Shown in pieces: positions 4,779-64,000 of a DNA stretch of 64,000 bases (position 1 is its first letter; the number at the start of each line of letters is the position of its first letter). Source of the stretch: an uncultured delta proteobacterium (lineage in GTDB: Bacteria > Desulfobacterota > Syntrophorhabdia > Syntrophorhabdales > WCHB1-27); NCBI GenBank assembly GCA_963750015.1, contig CAVVPU010000134.1, positions 7,137 through 71,136 on the forward strand. The letters are read 5' to 3'. The notes under the pieces are model-generated. The model did no database searches. It was given only the letters and a program-made list of their open reading frames with translations, and was not told the DNA's origin. The translations under genes were made by a program, and so were the position numbers.

Positions 4779-5246
4779 TCAATTGTTCGCCACCTTTTCC
4801 AACTCCCGCCGGTCGGTAGAAGTGAACACCTTCTTCAGCTCCAGCAGTATGAGGAGACGGTCATCGAGTTTGCCCACCCCTTCGATATATTCCGATTCTA
4901 TGCCTGCGACAAGCGCGGGGGGCGGTTCGACTGTGCTCTCGGAAATCCTCAGCACTTCCGAAACAGAGTCAACGATGAAGCCAAGGATCATACCTTCGAG
5001 CTCGACTACTATTATTCTGGTCGACTTGTCGTAAGCTCTTCCATCGAACCCAAGCCTTTTACGCAGGTCGACTATGGGAATGATCTTGCCTCTCAGATTT
5101 ATGACGCCTTCCACAAAAGGAGGGGCGTTGGGTATTCGGGTGATATCGATCATCTTGTTTATTTCCTGAACCTTAAGGATATCGACCCCGAATTCTTCGC
5201 CTTCTAACCGGAATGTCACGAGCTGTAGGATTCTGTTTTCATTCAT
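4779..5246 (-). CDS. cheW: chemotaxis coupling protein CheW
   Basis: 155 aa CheW-like domain (EEFGVDILKVQEI, PPFVEGVINLRGKIIPIVDLRKRLG). Confidence 0.93.
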   Translation of the reverse strand: MNENRILQLVTFRLEGEEFGVDILKVQEINKMIDITRIPNAPPFVEGVINLRGKIIPIVDLRKRLGFDGRAYDKSTRIIVVELEGMILGFIVDSVSEVLRISESTVEPPPALVAGIESEYIEGVGKLDDRLLILLELKKVFTSTDRRELEKVANN

Positions 5247-5268
5247 ATTGAAGCCCTCCTTTCCAGTG

Positions 5269-12272: not shown

Positions 12273-13010
12273 GGGTTTGAAGTGTCGCTGCATTGAGGGC
12301 CTCAAACTCACGATCGCCTGGGCATGAATCTGGCAGACACGCGCCTCCGTCACCCCTAGTGTTTTGGCTATTTCCTTCATATTCATGTCCTCGTGATAGT
12401 ATAGGCTCAGCACTATCCTCTGTTTCTCCGGCAGCTTTTCCATCTCTTCAGCGAGTATTCTCTCCAACTCGTAAAATTCCGCATATTTCTCCGGATTCTC
12501 ATCATCATCGAGCACGTAACCTATGATCTTGTCACGGCTCTCTCCGGAATTCTCGCTCATATCCTCTATGCTCACGACCGAAAGGTTCCCGCAACTTCTG
12601 AGCATCGAAAGATATTCGCCGAGGTCCATGTTGAGGGCTTCGGCTATCTCCTCTTCCTCGGGGTACCTGCCCAGCTCATGCTCGAGTTTCCTCATCACTT
12701 CCTGAATTCTCTTTGCCTTGGCCCTCGCACTCCTCGGGAACCAATCGCGACATCTCAATTCGTCGATCATGGCCCCTCGTATCCTGAGATAGGCAAAGGT
12801 ATTCAGCTTAGCTCCTCTGGTGGAGTCGTATTTCTCCATAACCTCCAGAAGTCCGATAATTCCCGCTGAAATCAGGTCGTCTATGAGATTCTCATTCTCA
12901 AAGCCCCGGGCAACCTTATAGGCCAGGTGCTTGATGACGGGCAGGAATTCTTCTACGGTCTTTTCCCTTGCTGATTTGTCGAGTTTTTTATAGGCGTTAT
13001 TCAGCATCAT
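12270..13010 (-). CDS. fliA: flagellar sigma factor FliA (sigma-28)
   Basis: 246-aa sigma-70 family protein. Region 2 (DLISAGIIGLLEVMEKYD) and a region 4 HTH (NMKEIAKTLGVTEARVCQIHAQA). Lies after flhG. Confidence 0.92.
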   Translation of the reverse strand: MMLNNAYKKLDKSAREKTVEEFLPVIKHLAYKVARGFENENLIDDLISAGIIGLLEVMEKYDSTRGAKLNTFAYLRIRGAMIDELRCRDWFPRSARAKAKRIQEVMRKLEHELGRYPEEEEIAEALNMDLGEYLSMLRSCGNLSVVSIEDMSENSGESRDKIIGYVLDDDENPEKYAEFYELERILAEEMEKLPEKQRIVLSLYYHEDMNMKEIAKTLGVTEARVCQIHAQAIVSLRPSMQRHFKP

Positions 13011-55802: not shown

Positions 55803-55981
55803 CGTGGAGGCTGCGCGAGCGTGGCTTGCGAAAGTTATTGGCTGAATAGCCTGACGTCGGAGGGGGCCGTTGTCATTTTTTGCCTGGCGAACCCCCGCGG
55901 TTGCAAGCATTGCCAATTGTAACGTTCGCTTTGAGCGTGGTCGAGCAAAATCTAGGCTTTCAGGAAGCTAGGGGGTGAGGT

Positions 55982-57256
55982 CTACTTGACGCAAATCATC
56001 AAACCGTAACCGCCACGGCTATCTGTTACCGTTACGACGAGCATCGTTTTGTCGGTAGACAAGACACCGTGAAAGCTGACATTGTCGCTTGTAGTGACCG
56101 TTCCGTCGCTGGCAATGCTCGCAGTGCCTAAAGACGCGTGCGCAAACGATGGCACGGTCCCATCACTCAGGAGCCCGGACCCTACGGTTATGTTGCCGCT
56201 GCTGTCCATGACCAGGATTGCACGCTCCCAGCCCTGGTATGAGCAGGTGCCGGTGATGTTAAGCCCGAACATCCTCCAGTCTCCGGCAAGATCGGCAAGC
56301 GTATAGTTGCTTCCCCTCTTTACTCCGATTCTGATACCGTGTCCTGATACTCCGCTGCCCGAGATATCCATCGTGCCGATCAAGGCGTTCTTGCTGCCAT
56401 TCAAAGCTCCCATGTATGTTGATGTTCTGCTTGAGACAAAATACCCGTTGGAAACGCTGTACGTCTCTGTCGACGGAACGGTAGTGCCGCCCGTGCTCGA
56501 TAGCAAGGCCGTATAGGTTGCAACGCCGTTATTGAATGTGAGATCCGAATGAATCCATCCGCCGGAGCTGCCTGCGGCAAATACATGGTTGCTCCATGAG
56601 CCCGTCAGGTCGGAAGCCGAAAAGCTCGTTTGTTTGACGTAGAGGCCCAGGGCGGGGCCCGACACCCCGCCTGTCGTCGTCGGACCCGAGTCGGGGGCAA
56701 AGGTTACCGTGAAGGGCCAGACGTCTTTTACCCGGTTGAACGCTCCGACGGTGGAGCCGTCCCCCACGGTCCCGCTCGGGTCCACAAAATAGGTGGGACG
56801 GCCCGCAGCCGGGCTATACGTCTTGGGTGTGCTGTCCGTTGCCTGTCCGCCGGAGAAAGCGCCGTTTGAGTCAAACGACATGAGCCCATACTCCCACCCC
56901 TGCACGTCGCCCGTAAACTGGTTCACCGCGACGCCGAAAAAATACCATGCCCCCGTCAGGTTTGCCTGTATGCTTGCGGAGCTTGAGAGCGACGCCGGAT
57001 AGGAGTGGATGATGTCCCCACCCGTCGCTCCAAGGTTCAGCGGATTGTTCGCCGGAATCGCGACCCCCGACAACGTATCGACGAAGCCCAGGTTTATGGT
57101 CGTGTCCGACCCTAAAGTGAACCTGTTGGTTGTCATTGAGCTGGAGTCGAAGAGGGGAGAGATCCTCTGGTCCGCGGTCTCTTCGTTTTCGATGAGATAT
57201 AGCTGGTAAGTACCGGCGGGAAAGCTGAGGGTGAACGTCTTGGGGCTTCCCGAAGC
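55982..57256 (-). pseudogene. 5'-truncated gene for a G/S/T-rich beta-type (surface or secreted?) protein
   Basis: ORF track gives 55982-57136. The frame stays open and protein-like upstream (ASGSPKTFTLSFPAGTYQLYLIENEETADQRISPLFDSSS) until a TAG at 57257-57259 inside the first REP copy. There is no start codon, RBS or signal peptide. Confidence 0.6.
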
Positions 57257-57345
57257 CTACGGGGTCAGGTCTTTCATTGCCGAAGCCTACGGGGTCAGGT
57301 CTTTCATTGCGAAGCCTACGGGGTCAGGTCTTTCATTGTAGCATT
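57251..57345. repeat. three head-to-tail REP-like repeats (30-bp period)
   Basis: CGAAGCCTACGGGGTCAGGTCTTTCATTGC at 57251 and 57281. The third copy (57311-57345) extends to ...CATTGTAGCATT. Confidence 0.95.
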
Positions 57346-58187
57346 CTCCGTTCTTCATCCCTAACGATCCGGCTAATCGTCGTATAGTGCAGGCCAAGGT
57401 TTGTACCGATCTGCTGAAGCGTGTAATGGTAAGTGACGTGGGCGGTGTAAATGGCCTTGTTCCGCGCCTCTTTTGAGGACGCAGCCGCAAAGAGGTGAGA
57501 AAGGTCGGGCTTGGCAGCCTCCCGTTGGCGTCGCGGAATTTCGCGATTGTCGTTGCGGAGCAGCCGCTTCATCTCTTCCACGAAGTACTCGTCGCCGAGG
57601 TAGATCTGCCCCTTCAGCTCAGCCCACAGAGAGGTTCCCGAAATGCCTTCTGCGACAAACTTCCGGTAGAGTTCGCATGCCCTCTTTCGTATCGTGCTGA
57701 ACTGGGCAAGAATCGAACCTGTCGTGAGAAAGGAAGGGACATCGTCGATTCCCGCCGTTGCCCGATAGCTGCTCCACTTCCAGTCTTCTACGTTCTCGGT
57801 TGCATGTGCTCTCACGGGATTAAGGGCGACGTAGCGGCAGAGTTCGAGAAAATAGGAGTCACCATCGACGATGATTGCCTTATACCTTCCTTGGAAGACA
57901 TGACCTGTCATATGGTGCTTCCAGTTGTATTTCTGGGTATATATGCCGTTGAGCTGCCTCATTCCCTTTGCAAGGTTTGCTTCCCTCGTTTCGATGACGA
58001 GATGATAATGATTATCCATAAGGCAGTAGGCGTAGCAAATCCATTGAAACCGGTTCACGATGCTGGCGAGAAGCTCGGTGAAATATCTGCGGTCTTTGTC
58101 GTTTCTGAAGATCTTCTGACGGGCGTTGCCCCGGGAGGTGAGGTGATACAGGGCGCCGGGGTATTCGATGCGGAGGGGACGTGCCAT
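57333..58187 (-). CDS. Y1 HUH transposase, REP-associated (RayT/IS200-like) with C-terminal HTH
   Basis: 284 aa. YHLTSRGN, HUH motif NHYHLVIE, Tyr region VFQGRYKA and a C-terminal HTH (YTLQQIGTNLGLHYTTISRIV). Confidence 0.85.
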   Translation of the reverse strand: MARPLRIEYPGALYHLTSRGNARQKIFRNDKDRRYFTELLASIVNRFQWICYAYCLMDNHYHLVIETREANLAKGMRQLNGIYTQKYNWKHHMTGHVFQGRYKAIIVDGDSYFLELCRYVALNPVRAHATENVEDWKWSSYRATAGIDDVPSFLTTGSILAQFSTIRKRACELYRKFVAEGISGTSLWAELKGQIYLGDEYFVEEMKRLLRNDNREIPRRQREAAKPDLSHLFAAASSKEARNKAIYTAHVTYHYTLQQIGTNLGLHYTTISRIVRDEERRMLQ

Positions 58188-58216: not shown

Positions 58217-58242
58217 AATGCTACAATGAAAGACCTGACCCC
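58217..58242. repeat. REP-like 26-bp core copy
   Basis: AATGCTACAATGAAAGACCTGACCCC, 30 nt upstream of the transposase start. Confidence 0.9.
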
Positions 58243-58375
58243 ATGGCATTCCTAAATGATTAGTAACAGTTTAGTCCTTCCCGACATATTTTTTATCTAA
58301 AATACGTAAGAAATCGATAAAAGTGTTGCCTTATCGGGCTATTTTTGTGGTAATATATAAGAGTATAAATACTCT

Positions 58376-58666
58376 TTGGAGGTTACCATGCAACGAGTCG
58401 ACATCCTTAAGAAGCAGCGGGAGAGGCTCAAGGAAGATATCGGGGCGTACCTCGATTCCTTCCTTATCGGGACGGTCGCCAAGTCCCCTTCCATGACCGG
58501 CCATGGTCTTACCACGAAGGTGAAGGGGAAGACAGTATCCCTGTATGTGAGAAAAGGGATCGTGAGGGAGGTAGAGGAGATGACCACGCGGTACAAGCGA
58601 ATGTGGCTTCTTCTGCAGAAGCTCTCGAAGATCAACTGGGAGATTCTCAAAGCGGAGAGCGACTAG
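58376..58666 (+). CDS. small IS-associated protein (96 aa)
   Basis: Basic coiled-coil ORF whose TAG stop directly abuts the GTG start of the transposase. No function recognised. Confidence 0.6.
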   Translation: MEVTMQRVDILKKQRERLKEDIGAYLDSFLIGTVAKSPSMTGHGLTTKVKGKTVSLYVRKGIVREVEEMTTRYKRMWLLLQKLSKINWEILKAESD

Positions 58667-60190
58667 GTGACTCGTGGCGCGTATCCGCCCTATGGCTTCA
58701 CCTGTCCTTACACGGATCACTGCCCTCATCTGGACGGGCTGTCCACGACATGGGTGTTCGAAGAGTACCAACGGGGCGAGGAGGTGTATCAGGAGCATCT
58801 TCGCATCATCGATGTGCTGAACGACAGGTTGAACGAAGCTCTGAAACAGGTCCGGATACTGGAGAAGGAGAATGGGGAATTGAAAGCGAAGAATACCGCG
58901 TTGCATCGCCGACAATTCAAAGCGAACAAAGCGATGCATTCAGAAAGCGGCAGCCCTGCCGGTACAAGGAAGAAACGAGGCGCTCCGGTGGGTCACCCGG
59001 GGTGGTCGAGGGCTACGCCGCACCGTGCGGATAGGACCGTGCACGTTCCCGCCCCTTCGATATGCCCCCATTGCGGATCCGACAATCTTATACCCTCACA
59101 GGAGGTCAGCGAGCACCTCCAGGAAGACATCGTCCTTCGTCCGCGCACGGTTGTTACCAGGTATGTGCACGGGGAGGCGTACTGCGGCCACTGTCGCCGG
59201 TCTGTGGTACAAAGGGGAGAGGATGAGCTTCTTAACGCTTCTATCGGGCCGATTGCCAAATCAACCGCTATTTACTTACGGTATCGGATAGGCATGCCCT
59301 ATCGCAAGGTGCAGGAGGTATTCAAAGACCTCTTCGGTCTGCACTTCGTTGCCGCCTCCGCGGTGGGGTTCGACCGGCAGGCGGCAACGAAGGGGACGGC
59401 GATTTACGAAGACCTGAGGGAGAAGATCAAGGCATCGGCCGTCATCCATGCCGATGAAACCTCCTGGCGGAATGACGGCCTCGGCCATTATGCGTGGTAT
59501 GCGGGGAATCCCGATCTGGCGTTTTTCCATCTCGACCGGCACCGCTCCACCGACGTGGCTCGATCCATCCTGGGGTCGAGATTCGAGGGCATCCTGGTCA
59601 CGGATCGCTATGCCGCGTATAACGGCGCGAATGCACAGGCACGGCAGGTCTGCCTGGCGCACCTTATCAGACAGGCACAAGAAACCACCAGGGAACTCGT
59701 CCTGATCGAAGACCGTGACAAAAAGGCGGAAGCCTTTTGCGCGGACATCGCCTCGTTCTTCTCAAAAGCCTGCAGAATAGGTCAGGAGTTCCGTGCCGGT
59801 GACCTCTCCTGGAATCAGGCGTCCCACGTGGAAAAAGGACTCGAAAGAGAACTGAGAAAGCTTTGCGCCCCCGCGCTCACCTATAAGCCCGCAGAAGCCC
59901 TCCGGGCCTCCCTCATGGGGAAAGACCACACGCACCTGTTCACCTTCCTCCGCTATCCCGGCGTGCAGCCGACCAACAATCAGGCGGAGCAGTCCCTTCG
60001 CTTTCTAGTGATCTTCCGCAAGATAATGTTCGGTACTCGATCCATAAGCGGATTAAGAACACATAGCGTCCTGCCCAGCCTCATCCTCACCGCATGCCGG
60101 CAGGGACAAAACCCCCGTGCGTTCCTCCACACCCTTCTCACTGCCGATACTGCGACGGCCCAAGCAGCTCTGTATCACAACTCAAGCTGA
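58667..60190 (+). CDS. IS66 family transposase
   Basis: 507 aa. Leucine-zipper region (LKQVRILEKENGELKAKN), zinc finger CPHCGS...CGHC, DDE region IHADETSWR, VTDRYAAYN and CLAHLIR. Confidence 0.92.
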   Translation: MTRGAYPPYGFTCPYTDHCPHLDGLSTTWVFEEYQRGEEVYQEHLRIIDVLNDRLNEALKQVRILEKENGELKAKNTALHRRQFKANKAMHSESGSPAGTRKKRGAPVGHPGWSRATPHRADRTVHVPAPSICPHCGSDNLIPSQEVSEHLQEDIVLRPRTVVTRYVHGEAYCGHCRRSVVQRGEDELLNASIGPIAKSTAIYLRYRIGMPYRKVQEVFKDLFGLHFVAASAVGFDRQAATKGTAIYEDLREKIKASAVIHADETSWRNDGLGHYAWYAGNPDLAFFHLDRHRSTDVARSILGSRFEGILVTDRYAAYNGANAQARQVCLAHLIRQAQETTRELVLIEDRDKKAEAFCADIASFFSKACRIGQEFRAGDLSWNQASHVEKGLERELRKLCAPALTYKPAEALRASLMGKDHTHLFTFLRYPGVQPTNNQAEQSLRFLVIFRKIMFGTRSISGLRTHSVLPSLILTACRQGQNPRAFLHTLLTADTATAQAALYHNSS

Positions 60191-60540
60191 GGGGTCGGGC
60201 GAGCACAGGGACTAAACTGTTACGAACAGATCGGGAGGATTTCGCATCAGAACAGGTGGCCCATGAGGACTCGAGACGCGTGCGCAATGAGGGAGATACT
60301 TTTGTCTCTATGCCGAACAGATTCATCTGGGAGGTGTTTTCTTATGCATGTACCATTATGCAATTGTACTTAATTCTCGAATTGTACGTGCTTACCCGAG
60401 GAGAGTGAAATCTTCAACGATTATCAACATTTCACACCCGCGAACTGCTTCCTGAAAGGTAGTTTTTCAAGATTTCTCTTGCAGTCCAAAAATACGAATG
60501 ATATTCCTTGAACAGGTCAAATCAGATACCGACGGGGAAT

Positions 60541-60566
60541 AATGCTACAATGAAAGACCTGACCCC
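60541..60566. repeat. REP-like 26-bp core copy
   Basis: AATGCTACAATGAAAGACCTGACCCC, in direct orientation relative to the 58217 copy. Confidence 0.9.
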
Positions 60567-60586
60567 ACAAGCTTTTCCTAACAGCC

Positions 60587-60660
60587 CGCGGCTCCGGCCT
60601 TCATAGGATGCACACACCAGCACCAATTGAATAAGAGCGGCGTCCCTGGAGGCCGCCAAA
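60587..60660. repeat. left arm of a 74-bp imperfect inverted repeat
   Basis: The reverse complement aligns with 63653-63725 (5 substitutions and 1 indel). Confidence 0.9.
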
Positions 60661-60901
60661 GGCAACGTGGGCTATTTCCCTCATTTGGAGGGGAGAGGGC
60701 AGGGTGAGGGTGGCCATTCGGCCTTTTGTCTTTAACTTTCGCGATTCGAGTTTCGCGTTATTATCTTTCCCCTTTCCCCTTCCAAATGCGTTCGCCGTGT
60801 CTCTCACCCTCTCAGAGGACGGGTGCCTTAACCCAAGGGCTAAAAATCTGCGCCCCTCGACTCCGCGGGCCACGCGGGTAATCCGCCCGGCTGGGGGGAA
60901 C

Positions 60902-60930
60902 TTGACAACACGTCCCTTTAATAGTACTGT
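60902..60930 (+). promoter_or_regulatory. sigma-70 type promoter candidate for the TA operon
   Basis: TTGACA-N17-TACTGT, 27 nt upstream of the antitoxin ATG. It overlaps the imperfect palindrome TACTGTTACAAGTA. Confidence 0.4.
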
Positions 60931-60956
60931 TACAAGTAGCATGGGAGGTACAATTA

Positions 60957-61238
60957 ATGCCGAAGACTCCGAAGATTATGCCTATTTCCGATCTCAGACA
61001 AAACGCGAGCGATGTTGTCAAAAAGGTATCGTTATCCGGAGAGCCTGTCTTTATTACCCAGCGCGGACGGGCGGCTGCAGTCATGGTCAGCATGCAGGTT
61101 TATGAAGAGTCCCAGCACGAGCTCGAAATCTTACGGCTGCTCGCGCGCGGTGAGAAAGAAATAGAGGCAGGTGTCGGCTATGAACTTGATGAAGTCCTGA
61201 AAGAGGCAGACCGCTTTCTTGAGGTTTCAAAAGCTTGA
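60957..61238 (+). CDS. Phd/YefM family antitoxin
   Basis: 93 aa. MPISDLRQNASDVVKKVSLSGEPVFITQRGRAAAVMVSMQVYE is typical Phd/YefM. GGGAGG RBS. Confidence 0.88.
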   Translation: MPKTPKIMPISDLRQNASDVVKKVSLSGEPVFITQRGRAAAVMVSMQVYEESQHELEILRLLARGEKEIEAGVGYELDEVLKEADRFLEVSKA

Positions 61239-61525
61239 GAGTCCTCTTTACCCCTACAGGCCGCCGGCAGTTTCTGGAAGGACTGGCTTATATTCACCGA
61301 GATAATCCCACTGCCGCAAAAGGATTTCGCGGGAAGGCCGAAAAAGCACTTTTACGCTTGAAAGAGTTCCCGGAATCCGGGAGACTGGTTCCCGAGTTCT
61401 CTGACCTGCCCTTTCGCGAGGTGATCGTCAGACCATATCGGTTCTTCTACAGAGTCAAGGATCAAACTGTGTGGATTGTTGCGGTCTGGCATAGCGCCCA
61501 ACTACCTCAAGAGCCCGATCAGTAA
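61235..61525 (+). CDS. ParE/RelE family toxin
   Basis: 96 aa, overlapping the antitoxin stop by 4 nt. ParE-like (FTPTGRRQFLEGLAYI, REVIVRPYRFFYRVKDQTVWIVAVWHSAQ). Confidence 0.88.
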   Translation: MRVLFTPTGRRQFLEGLAYIHRDNPTAAKGFRGKAEKALLRLKEFPESGRLVPEFSDLPFREVIVRPYRFFYRVKDQTVWIVAVWHSAQLPQEPDQ

Positions 61526-61756
61526 TCGATGAAACGCGTCAGGGTGCAGGTTCCGGGGTCTCCTTCCTGAACTCGATAACCATTGAGTTTCTCTTGCATT
61601 CTTCGAATACGAGTGGTAAGTGGTAAATGGTTAGGCAGGGAGTCAACAGCTCAGCAAGTGAGTCCAGTGATGTCCCTATGGCCCATACAATTATCGACAA
61701 AGACCCGTTCTGCCGATAGGTGGCTGCGAAGACGAGCGCACGGAGGACTGAGACCC

Positions 61757-62206
61757 ATGGCCGACATAAATCTCACGCAAGCTGAAGCCAACGCCCTCAT
61801 CGCGATGGAGAAGCATCGGATCAATGATGACGGTTGGGACTATCCTGTTGCGGGCGAATCAATCAGTGTTCCTCTTATTTCTGCGGATAAACGAGAGAAC
61901 TTCGTTCTCGACGTATACAGGGGAAGGATCGACCTGCTGAAGGGTACGTACCAGCACCGCTCCCGGCAAGTTGTCATCTTGGTACGGCTTGACTTCGGTG
62001 GGCAGCCCCACAGGAACCCGGATGATAGTCACGTCCCGTCGCCCCACCTACATGTTTATCGAGAAGGCTTCGGCGATAGGTGGGCCGTTCCGATCCCCGA
62101 GGACAAGTTTCCAAATGCTGGGGATTTATGGGCTACGCTGGAACATTTCATGTTATTCTGTAACATCACTCGGCCACCACTCATTCAGAGAGGATTGTTC
62201 GCATGA
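61757..62206 (+). CDS. hypothetical protein A (149 aa), first gene of a coupled pair
   Basis: Start set at ATG 61757 behind a GGAGGA RBS (the ORF track start at 61583 is unlikely). Contains [34 protein letters not shown]. No family recognised. Confidence 0.6.
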
Positions 62207-62967
62207 TCGAAGAAATCCAGAAGCTCCTTGACACCTATCTGGCTTGGCTAAGAGACAAGACTAAGCTCAGACAGGTTGGCGATTGGGCCGAGATCACAAC
62301 CCCTTATCTTGATCGGCACAACGACTATCTCCAAATTTATGCCGGCCGGAAGAACGGCGGGTTTGTCCTCACGGATGACGGATACGTCATTGGAGACCTG
62401 AAACGGTCAGGCTGCGAACTGGAAAGCAAGAAGCGCAGAGACCTTCTGATCCAGACGTTGAACGGCTTCGGCGTTAAGCTGGAAAACGATTCCTTACAGG
62501 TTCAGGCTTCGCCCGACAATTTCGCTCTCAGAAAACACAACCTTGTACAGGCCATGCTGGCGATAAATGATCTGTTCTACCTTGCCACTCCGATTGTTGC
62601 CAGCCTCTTTCTTGAAGATGTCACGCTGTGGCTCGACGCAAATGATGTCCGGTACACCCCCAAGGTGAAGTTCGCGGGCAAGAGTGGATATGACCATCTC
62701 TTCGATTTCGTGATTCCAGCCTCCAAACAAGAACCGGAGCGCATACTGCAAACCATGAATAGGCCGAACCGCGATACTGCTCAGGCCATCGCTTTTTCGT
62801 GGATAGATACGAAGGATGTCAGGCCGCAGAATTCGAGAGCATACGCCTTTTTGAACGACATGGACCACACCCCTTCCGCTTCTGTGATAGATGCCCTAAA
62901 GAACTACGACGTGCACCCCGTTCTGTGGAGCGAGAGACAACGGGTTCGTGAAGAACTGGCCGCATGA
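62203..62967 (+). CDS. DUF1828/DUF1829-like protein B (254 aa)
   Basis: ATGA overlap with gene A. The N-half ([36 protein letters not shown]) and C-half ([26 protein letters not shown]) resemble the DUF1828 plus DUF1829 architecture. This is from memory and needs HMM confirmation. Confidence 0.6.
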
Positions 62968-63191
62968 CCGCATTTACCAAAGTATATGGGCCATGCAATC
63001 AGGGGAATAGGGGGCCAGGGAGATGGCAGCGAGAGGCTGGTCCGATAAGTGGTTGAACACGTACAGAATGGAACAACGTGTCTGCCAGCTTCGTTGTGAG
63101 GCGGAGAAAACGAAAATGTAAAGGGCGCCCAGCCTTCCGCCCTTCGCGAATAGGCAAAATAGGCAAGAAATGGTTAGGTGAGTAATCTGGA

Positions 63192-63590
63192 ATGAAACCT
63201 GTCCTTGATTTGATAATGAGTCATTGGCTTGTGATAGCTGTCGGTATGAGTCTCTTTTGGGGAATCAGAGGAGCGTATCTTGAGTATGTCGACAGAACGG
63301 ACGATTTCATTTTAAGAGTGGACAAGCCCCATAGGCTGCATAGCCTATTGAATTTCGCAACATTCCAATTCATCTTCAGTTTTGTTGGCTCTTTTGCGGG
63401 ATGGTGCTGTCTATATATTCTGATTTTGAGGGTGCAGCCAAATCTATTAAGGAACTTGGATTCGAGTGACTTCGTGCTTTTTCTACTCTCATTTCTCGGA
63501 ATAGCAGGTATTTTATCTCAGGCTATTTACGGATTGATAAAGTCTTTAGGAAAGATTGCCGCGATCGGAATAGATAAACTTGTGAAGTAA
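63192..63590 (+). CDS. small hydrophobic membrane protein (132 aa)
   Basis: 3-4 predicted TM segments (HWLVIAVGMSLFWGI, FQFIFSFVGSFAGWCCLYILIL, FVLFLLSFLGIAGILSQAIYGLI). AGGTGAG RBS. GC visibly lower than its surroundings. Confidence 0.55.
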   Translation: MKPVLDLIMSHWLVIAVGMSLFWGIRGAYLEYVDRTDDFILRVDKPHRLHSLLNFATFQFIFSFVGSFAGWCCLYILILRVQPNLLRNLDSSDFVLFLLSFLGIAGILSQAIYGLIKSLGKIAAIGIDKLVK

Positions 63591-63652
63591 GGAAGTTCTC
63601 GTAAAGAACCCCTCCAGGGCGAGGGAAAAAGAGCAACACACATTCGGTCGGT

Positions 63653-63725
63653 TTTGGCGGCCTCTCGGGCCGCCGCTCTTGTTCAATTGTGCTGGTGTGT
63701 GAATCCTATGAAGGCCGGAGCCGCG
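63653..63725. repeat. right arm of the 74-bp imperfect inverted repeat
   Basis: TTTGGCGGCCTCTCGGGCCGCCGCTCTTGTTCAATTGTGCTGGTGTGTGAATCCTATGAAGGCCGGAGCCGCG. It contains the GC hairpin GCGGCC-TCTC-GGGCCGC followed by CTCTTGTTC. Confidence 0.9.
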
Positions 63726-63799
63726 CTCTCTTTAATGATACGGCTCCGCGTGTTACCGACCGGCCACACCTCGTGCCCTCTCTCGCCTTTGTGCTTCTC

Positions 63800-64000
63800 C
63801 TACACCTTCACTAAGGTATATGCCCTCTCACCCATCCCCATCTTCTGGGCATGCTCGAGCTGAATCGTCCAATCTATTCTCGGAAATACCGCCCGGAACT
63901 TGTCCTCGCCTGCCTTGAGGCGCTCTTTGATCACGCACCCGGGCATGGACTCCTCGCCATTTACCAGGTCGCATGACGCTGCGTCTATGGCCACGGGGTC
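63800..64000 (-). CDS. 3' end of a gene entering from beyond the window (C-terminus resembles DUF362-type proteins)
   Basis: The frame is open to the window edge. ...VAIDAASCDLVNGEESMPGC...ERAYTLVKV. The family call is tentative. Confidence 0.45.
   Translation of the reverse strand, partial: DPVAIDAASCDLVNGEESMPGCVIKERLKAGEDKFRAVFPRIDWTIQLEHAQKMGMGERAYTLVKV

Follow-up and report, generated by a model that had tools for sequence, protein, structure and literature searches.

The window analysed here is a stretch of 64,000 nucleotides (nt) from an uncultured delta proteobacterium of the order Syntrophorhabdales (contig CAVVPU010000134.1, positions 7,137 to 71,136). Towards its right end, two inverted sequence arms enclose a group of accessory genes that an initial annotation had described as a possible cassette, mobilised by a transposase acting in trans. 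The arms are located at 60586-60660 on the plus strand (75 nt) and at 63653-63726 on the minus strand (74 nt), one base further out than they had first been placed (CGCGGCTCC). Both belong to longer repeat units, here named U, which can comprise an outer extension, a loop, the arm itself, a spacer, and a G-rich inner module termed X. U is an undescribed modular repeat family within the known class of dispersed intergenic repeats. Labels between L001 and L103 denote contigs retrieved for comparison. The two units and the features between them are listed by position.

60586-60660, plus strand: left arm, 75-nt core of the repeat unit, CGCGGCTCCGGCCTTCATAGGAT...GGCGTCC-CTGGA-GGCCGCC-AAA
60661-60765, plus strand: inner modules of the left unit, a 14-nt spacer and a full X, homologous to L008 2063-2254 and L100 469-659
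60957-61238, plus strand: Phd/YefM antitoxin (Pfam, E 5e-16)
61235-61525, plus strand: ParE toxin (Pfam, E 1e-16)
61563-61661, plus strand: 99-nt promoter-like element (TTGCAT, 17 nt, TAAGTG), 85% identical to L090 8778-8876
61757-62206, plus strand: DUF6978 protein, PDC-M24 protein A (Pfam; PADLOC, E 6e-56)
62203-62967, plus strand: DUF1828/DUF1829 protein, PDC-M24 protein B (Pfam; PADLOC, E 9e-107)
63192-63590, plus strand: orphan open reading frame (ORF) for a hydrophobic 132-aa membrane protein, 40.6% GC against 54% for the window, without a family and in a cluster of one member
63609-63652, minus strand: inner part of the right unit, the truncated start of X (CCCCTCCAGGGCGAGGGAAA hairpin) and the spacer
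63653-63726, minus strand: right arm, 74-nt core of the repeat unit (blastn, repeat search, and nhmmer)
63727-63797, minus strand: outer part of the right unit, a variable 11-nt loop and the outer extension (GATACGGCTCCGCGTGTTACCGACCGGCC...)

When the left arm was compared with the right by blastn over the whole window, the two aligned on opposite strands over 74 nt with 91.9% identity, 5 mismatches, and 1 gap (E 4e-25), in line with the 74-bp imperfect inverted repeats of about 92% identity described initially. The inverted repeat was resolved by repeat search into two abutting pieces, 60580-60623/63689-63732 (44 nt, 91%) and 60624-60660/63653-63689 (37 nt, 89%). The GC hairpin reported for each arm was found in both (GGCGGCC..GGCCGCC), and the weaker gapped similarity reported further inward was recovered as TTTCCCTC..GGAGGGG at about 60675-60693 with its complement at 63609-63629. 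Reading of the outer ends revealed neither a direct repeat nor a target duplication (TAACAGCC vs CTCTCTTT), again as stated before. No third arm copy occurred in the window, either by blastn or by a 10-copy nhmmer profile. The longest exact stretch common to both arms was 22 nt. Core identity amounted to 92% between the left and right arms, 95% between the left arm and the first arm of L008, and 85% between the first and second arms of L008 (L008a and L008b). Judged by these core identities, the window arms are not each other's closest relatives.

Between the arms, Pfam assigned PhdYeFM, ParE, DUF6978, and DUF1828 with DUF1829, leaving one ORF without a family. No recombinase was among them, and the description of this interval as purely accessory was thereby upheld. 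PDC-M24, to which the DUF6978 and DUF1828/DUF1829 proteins were assigned, is a candidate defence system of PADLOC.

Architecture and distribution of the repeat unit

A full U extends up to about 300 nt and consists of an outer extension of about 50-70 nt (...GGCACGAGGTGTGGCCGGTCG[GTAACACGCGGAG]CCGTATC), an adjoining copy-specific loop of about 10 nt, the 75-nt arm, a spacer of 14-45 nt, and X. Across the aligned copies, X is composed of the TTTCCCTC..GGAGGGG hairpin, a GGGTGAGGGTGGCC tract, and a CTTTCGCG..CGCGAAAG hairpin followed by T-rich sequence. The left unit of the window carries all of these parts of X, with the third represented by a CGCGATTCGAGTTTCGCG hairpin and a T-rich tail. On its outer side, homology to L008 runs 7 nt past the arm (AACAGCC) and is then replaced by a copy of a repeat that resembles repetitive extragenic palindromes and is associated with the nearby RayT transposase gene. 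Past the right arm (63727-63800), homology to L003, L007, L008, and L100 runs for another 40-75 nt, up to the stop of the convergent gene at 63800, and the repeated unit therefore continues past the outer edge of the arm. The right outer extension is common to the copies in L003, L005-L008, and L100 and abuts the stop codon of that gene, which encodes a DUF362 fragment. An 8-nt inverted repeat (CGGTCGGT/ACCGACCG, 63645-63652 and 63755-63762) closes the whole right unit into one predicted structure and is missing from the other copies.

Outside the window, eight full or near-full copies of U and one 20-nt fragment were detected on seven metagenome contigs. The 22-nt arm pattern GCCTTCATAGGATNCACACACC matched six Joint Genome Institute (JGI) metagenome contigs, L003-L008, among 241 million metagenome records, and L100 added a further copy. 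The same pattern had 0 matches in 185,579 species-representative genomes. The gapped pattern GCCGTAKCN{6,14}GCGGCTCCGGCC matched at least 81 genome loci; none of the loci listed was arm-like by blastn or nhmmer, and they represent GC-rich chance matches. Plasmid, phage, and viral collections contained no arm match, and nothing was found when an ORF reading through the arm was searched against a protein database for spurious ORFs over other copies. The flanks of L003-L008 share nothing with the window or with one another outside the repeat. The composition of the copies is given below.

L007: extension and arm
L006: extension and arm, with the contig ending inside the arm
L003: extension with half of the arm
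L005: extension, arm, and spacer, with X cut off after 13 nt
L004: X and, after it, an arm (half) in the same orientation
L008: two facing units with inverted arms 127 nt apart; only one arm has the spacer and X, and this X abuts the other arm
L100: extension, arm, spacer, full X, and then a 20-nt arm fragment in direct orientation
Window, left copy: no extension, full X
Window, right copy: full extension, only the first 20 nt of X

The units thus occur solo, as partial direct tandems, and as inverted pairs, and their inner truncation points vary among copies. The copies other than those of the window sit on contigs of 1.4-2.4 kb, so that partners are visible only within 0.3-1.5 kb, and the contig of L008 ends within its right extension. 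The ends of U are ragged across the aligned copies. Since both window arms have their own spacer and start of X and only one arm of L008 does, the window holds two separate inverted units rather than a palindrome with an insert.

The copies lie in non-coding DNA and, where the neighbours are readable, mostly directly 3' of genes or between convergent genes. U follows the gene of an AraC-family regulator in L007, lies downstream of a convergent gene in L003, and in L005 stands between a small membrane ORF, which it follows, and a sequence judged tRNA-like by eye. The right unit of the window is likewise placed between convergent genes. In L006 (1094-2200 on the minus strand, 2283-2390), the gene of an IS110-family RNA-guided transposase is situated between an IS4-like transposase fragment and U, with 118 nt of unique DNA before the extension. 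Elements of the IS110 family often insert into extragenic repeats, and the arrangement in L006 may be an IS110 insertion targeted at U. Insertions nested in the outer extension were also observed. A 138-nt palindrome (GGCCGGTCGCATGAAGGG...CCCTTCATGCGACCGGCC) is present in L008 (1802-1939) and L003 (11-155), and the extension of L100 contains an 89-nt insert (335-423) with a duplicated GGG(C/T)ACGAGGTGTGGCCGGT.

The right-hand locus could be compared directly with relatives. The gene on the right flank is a short DUF362-type fragment whose closest relative, P0121 with 97% amino-acid identity, is located on L100, a contig from the same JGI sample as L002, which holds a piece of the cassette at 100% identity. 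Across this gene, L100 and the window share 92% nucleotide identity. The gene is followed in L100 by the extension with its 89-nt insert, the loop, the arm, the spacer, the full X, the 20-nt direct arm fragment, 530 nt of unrelated DNA, and a gene with an sCache domain. Neither cargo nor an inverted arm was found in the available 1.15 kb, and synteny with the window is lost beyond the right unit, inside X. As the right-hand unit is found at the same locus in the cargo-free L100, the right arm is a resident of the intergenic region and independent of the cassette. As X is more complete in L100 than in the window, replacement of what lay past the start of X could turn an L100-like state into that of the window, whereas the opposite derivation is not possible. 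The loss of synteny within X also places the right breakpoint inside the repeat unit and not at a transposon end. No repeat followed the gene in its more distant relatives, in L101 and L102, at 79% and 71% amino-acid identity.

Neighbouring transposases and history of the cargo

The IS66 and RayT transposases that the initial annotation had placed to the left of the arms were both recognized by Pfam. Together with their own repeats they occupy the following positions.

57243-57345 (three in tandem) and 58217-58243 (one, on the other strand): repetitive extragenic palindrome (REP)-like units of RayT, about 29 nt, GTAGGCTTCGG...GACCTGACCCC
57333-58187, minus strand: RayT-like Y1 transposase (Pfam), 2.4 kb left of the left arm
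58260-60226, plus strand: IS66-family element with 18-nt terminal inverted repeats at 58260-58277 and 60209-60226 (TTAGTAACAGTTTAGTCC)
58667-60190: IS66 DDE transposase (Pfam)
60541-60574, plus strand: REP-like copy of the RayT set, with a 27-nt exact repeat of 58217-58243 at 60541-60567, in place of the expected outer extension of the left unit

The terminal repeats of the IS66 element are unrelated to the arms, and the REP-like units of RayT are absent from the arms and from all other arm-bearing contigs. Neither enzyme has an evident substrate in the arms. The identical 27-mers at 58217-58243 and 60541-60567 bracket the IS66 element plus 305 nt of extra DNA, too long for an IS66 target duplication. 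No transposase-bearing element with ends matching the arms was found among the metagenome hits, viral contigs, plasmids, and phages. REPs mobilised by RayT are imperfect palindromes of 20-40 nt with a 5' GTAG tetranucleotide and stand in inverted orientation around the RayT gene. The window resembles such a "REPtron" in that its RayT-like Y1 transposase has short flanking repeats in inverted orientation, with one more abutting the left arm. The arms differ from REPtron repeats, as they have no GTAG-type feature and the RayT gene is flanked by the REP-like units of about 29 nt and not by the arms.

The DUF1828/DUF1829 protein has more than 7,800 relatives, of which the best 120 share 76-92% identity and are labelled Syntrophorhabdales, Nitrospiraceae, Planctomycetota, Smithellaceae, and Syntrophomonadaceae. 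In the clusters of the window's core proteins, each is joined by only 1-3 others. This distribution points to a very wide recent horizontal transfer of the PDC-M24 pair. The closest relative of the DUF1828/DUF1829 protein, with 92% amino-acid identity, occurs in L090-L099 on an island without arms. In L090, the island measures 7.1 kb, is bounded by 75-nt direct repeats of a tRNA 3' end (5178-5252 and 12285-12359), and contains, besides the PDC-M24 operon, an HTH_17 protein, a Rep protein, and a fragment of an integrase. Additional large direct repeats in L090 suggest tandem related islands. In L103, the operon is located between type I restriction-modification and TIR-domain genes.

DNA homology between the window and L090-L099 covers exactly the two coding sequences (61757-62968, 81%) and the 99-nt piece (61563-61661, 85%). 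In the window this piece precedes the DUF6978 operon, whereas in L090-L099 it follows the operon at a distance of 5 nt, which amounts to a circular permutation relative to the operon. Its features include a stem (TAACCATT/AATGGTTA), in which L090 has one compensatory change, and a motif, GTTAGGC/GTTAGAC, that resembles an integron core site. It does not recur within L090, where the operon lies in the tRNA-integrating island, and is absent from L103. An assignment to integron attC sites, or to a cluster of attC sites lacking an integrase (CALIN), was rejected, as there was no integrase and no repeated site (attC was judged by eye only). No tyrosine recombinase was present among the ORFs scanned (40-57.2 kb, the cassette, and its neighbours). 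A similarity between 60473-60503 and 61588-61618 was discarded as marginal, with a score of 27 against a shuffled maximum of 25.

The Logan contig L001 matches the window at 100% over 61561-63681 only and in the same orientation, starting at the edge of the 99-nt piece and stopping 29 nt into the right arm. L001, L002, and L100 come from the samples ERR11523660 and JGI 3300041809. Exact matches to Phd, ParE, RayT, the IS66 transposase, and a neighbouring 384-aa protein are on record only from the source contig. Relatives of at least 90% identity exist for Phd (P0152, on a contig of 39 kb), the DUF1829 protein (P0139, 874 kb), RayT (P0156, 30 kb), and the IS66 transposase (P0158, 18 kb). The assembly breaks suggest, short of proof, that the Phd/ParE module and the block of PDC-M24 and the membrane ORF have separate histories. 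The cargo thus appears to be a mosaic, of which PDC-M24 is found elsewhere without the arms.

Origin of the arm pair

The most probable reading, to which we assign a probability of about 0.6, is that the arms are two opposite copies of a modular extragenic repeat beside an islet of independent modules, and not the ends of one transposon. The region from 57.2 to 63.8 kb would then be a small variable islet bordering the core genes, which islet may have accreted RayT with its REPs, IS66, Phd/ParE, PDC-M24, and the low-GC membrane ORF as separate modules. The islet would abut a resident right-hand U and truncate it inside X, and a second U, its outer side truncated by the REP-like copy, would lie at the other side of the cargo. 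The U copies could offer homology for recombination, and the two arms would not be the working ends of one transposon. The hairpins of U with their T-rich tails most likely represent terminators or insulators acting both ways, a function predicted from their form. Terminator-like consensus sites were located at 63655-63675 (plus strand, right-arm hairpin), 63626-63609 (minus strand), and 60740-60757 (plus strand).

The initial annotation had allowed that the arms might instead be REP-like or terminator-like intergenic modules, and this fallback fits the dispersed, modular, hairpin-bearing extragenic repeat described here. It had also proposed that a dispersed repeat without consistent pairing around cargo would speak against a cassette. 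To a large extent this is what was found, with the close inverted pair of L008 and the shortness of the contigs holding back a full statement. Dispersed intergenic repeats gather at variable regions and can pass for the ends of a transposon, so that a long inverted repeat around accessory genes does not suffice to diagnose a mobile cassette. The gain is modest: a new repeat family, from a bacterium that is poorly sampled and probably lives in peat, and a further genomic context of PDC-M24.

Several observations weigh against the reading of two independent extragenic repeats. The partner of any seemingly solo copy could lie more than 0.3-1.5 kb away, past the ends of contigs that measure 1.4-2.4 kb. 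Only two copies are present in 64 kb, yet they bracket most of the accessory genes of the window, with RayT and IS66 just outside the left arm, which would be a striking coincidence if the repeats were unrelated to the cargo. The inverted arm pair of L008 forms a compact palindromic unit that looks like a miniature inverted-repeat transposable element (MITE). As for function, the region contains 7 terminator-like sites against 6.3 expected from shuffled sequence, and the hairpin variants among the aligned copies are uncompensated and provide no covariation support for selection.

Known modular extragenic repeats include the pneumococcal BOX element (boxA-boxB-boxC), the bacterial interspersed mosaic elements (BIMEs) of E. 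coli, which are built from REP units, and the enterobacterial repetitive intergenic consensus (ERIC). Like these, U is non-coding and extragenic, often follows the 3' ends of genes, and carries hairpin-bearing sub-modules whose number, order, and orientation vary. Its truncation points vary as well, and it is sometimes hit by IS110-family insertions. In contrast to them, it has no sequence relationship to any of the three, its arm is mostly unstructured with one short hairpin instead of a 20-40-nt palindrome, and a GTAG-type 5' motif is missing. Its apparent copy number is low by comparison, with 2 copies in 64 kb and the exact 22-mer in 6 contigs of 241 million metagenome records.

Among the alternatives, a non-autonomous transposon is unlikely. 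Arms and extensions together would act as long terminal inverted repeats, served in trans, either of a mobile insertion cassette (MIC) or of a cargo-capturing MITE, with L008 as the empty and the window as the loaded form. It would take an added step in which the left end was later truncated by a REP or an IS66-associated rearrangement that erased the target duplication. In MICs, the repeats match the ends of a cognate insertion sequence or transposon and target duplications delimit the element, as exemplified by MIC231 of Bacillus cereus and the TnXax1-derived MICs of Xanthomonas (PMC4337579). The window agrees with this in having passenger genes between inverted repeats of <100 bp, no transposase inside, and transposase genes nearby. 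It departs from it in that there is no duplication, the IS66 ends are unmatched, the repeat extends past the arm, and one arm stands at the same locus in a cargo-free relative. MITEs such as the Correia elements of Neisseria are short and non-coding with long inverted ends, and their hairpins can act as terminators. The L008 copy is like them in being a short, non-coding palindromic unit with long inverted ends, but the ends of U are not sharp, no target duplication could be read, and inverted pairs are no more frequent than direct tandems and solo half-units.

In favour of a transposon of this kind are the inverted orientation of the arms around accessory genes only, without a recombinase, the facing arms and extensions of L008 only 127 nt apart, the low GC of the orphan ORF, and the types of cargo, as toxin-antitoxin and candidate defence genes are typical passengers. 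The absence of the repeat after the right-flank gene in L101 and L102 also indicates that the unit was gained in this lineage. These points are outweighed by the missing target duplication, by the fact that the window is not L008 plus an insert, since the spacer and start of X occur on both window arms and on one L008 arm, and by the unit of L100, which has a fuller X at the same locus and neither cargo nor an inverted partner within 1.15 kb. Moreover, the copies differ in where they are truncated on the inner side, L004 and L100 show direct tandems, searches for a transposase with matching ends found none, the terminal repeats of IS66 bear no relation to the arms, and plasmid, phage, and viral collections are without a match. 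Mobilisation of a non-autonomous cassette in trans, as suggested in the initial annotation, is hence mostly unsupported. No duplication marks its ends, the repeats of IS66 and RayT are unlike the arms, the unit extends past the arm edges, and the modules of the cargo occur elsewhere without arms.

A bolder and quite improbable variant is that the arm and extension form the long terminal repeat of an undescribed foldback-type non-autonomous element, of which L008 would be the empty form and which would shuttle toxin-antitoxin and defence modules, with an IS110-type recombinase as in L006 as one candidate mobiliser. If true, such a cargo-carrying element would be a new vehicle for moving defence genes.

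Still more doubtful is an invertible or recombining segment, in which the DNA between the inverted U copies would be inverted or replaced by way of their homology, which would explain the loss of synteny inside the right unit. It would account for 74-nt inverted repeats of 92% identity at a distance of 3 kb, for the break of L100 synteny within X of the right unit, and for a left unit without its extension facing a right unit without most of X. However, the longest exact shared stretch of 22 nt is poor for RecA-dependent recombination, L001 has the same orientation as the window and no inverted variant was seen, and no invertase gene is present.

A structured RNA, whether as a 3' untranslated region element, a small RNA, or an IS110-type guide ("bridge") RNA region, is highly improbable. 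In its favour, folding of the right unit is stronger than that of shuffled controls (z = -4.2 on the minus and -2.5 on the plus strand), and L006 has U upstream of the gene of an IS110 RNA-guided transposase. Against it, the left arm taken by itself has no folding advantage over shuffled controls (z = -1.1 and 0.0), other copies do not preserve the stem that closes the right unit, hairpin variants are uncompensated, 10 of the 11 copies and fragments have no IS110 gene nearby, and Rfam gave no match in 56-64 kb at E up to 1. No tRNA was found near the arms.

Remainder of the window

Positions 1-37000 of the window are mostly taken up by a flagellar and chemotaxis cluster, in which FlgI and FlgH were identified by Pfam and the remainder was recognized from the N-termini of the ORFs, as was the RuvAB that follows. 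Further on, RodZ and TonB/FecCD-type uptake genes were assigned by Pfam, and the accessory islet starts at about 57.2 kb. After a TonB-like gene, 62 nt at 55906-55967 are 82% identical, in inverted orientation, to non-coding DNA at L090 3128-3189. The stretch in L090 lies upstream of an alcohol dehydrogenase gene in L090-L097 and may represent another small dispersed repeat.

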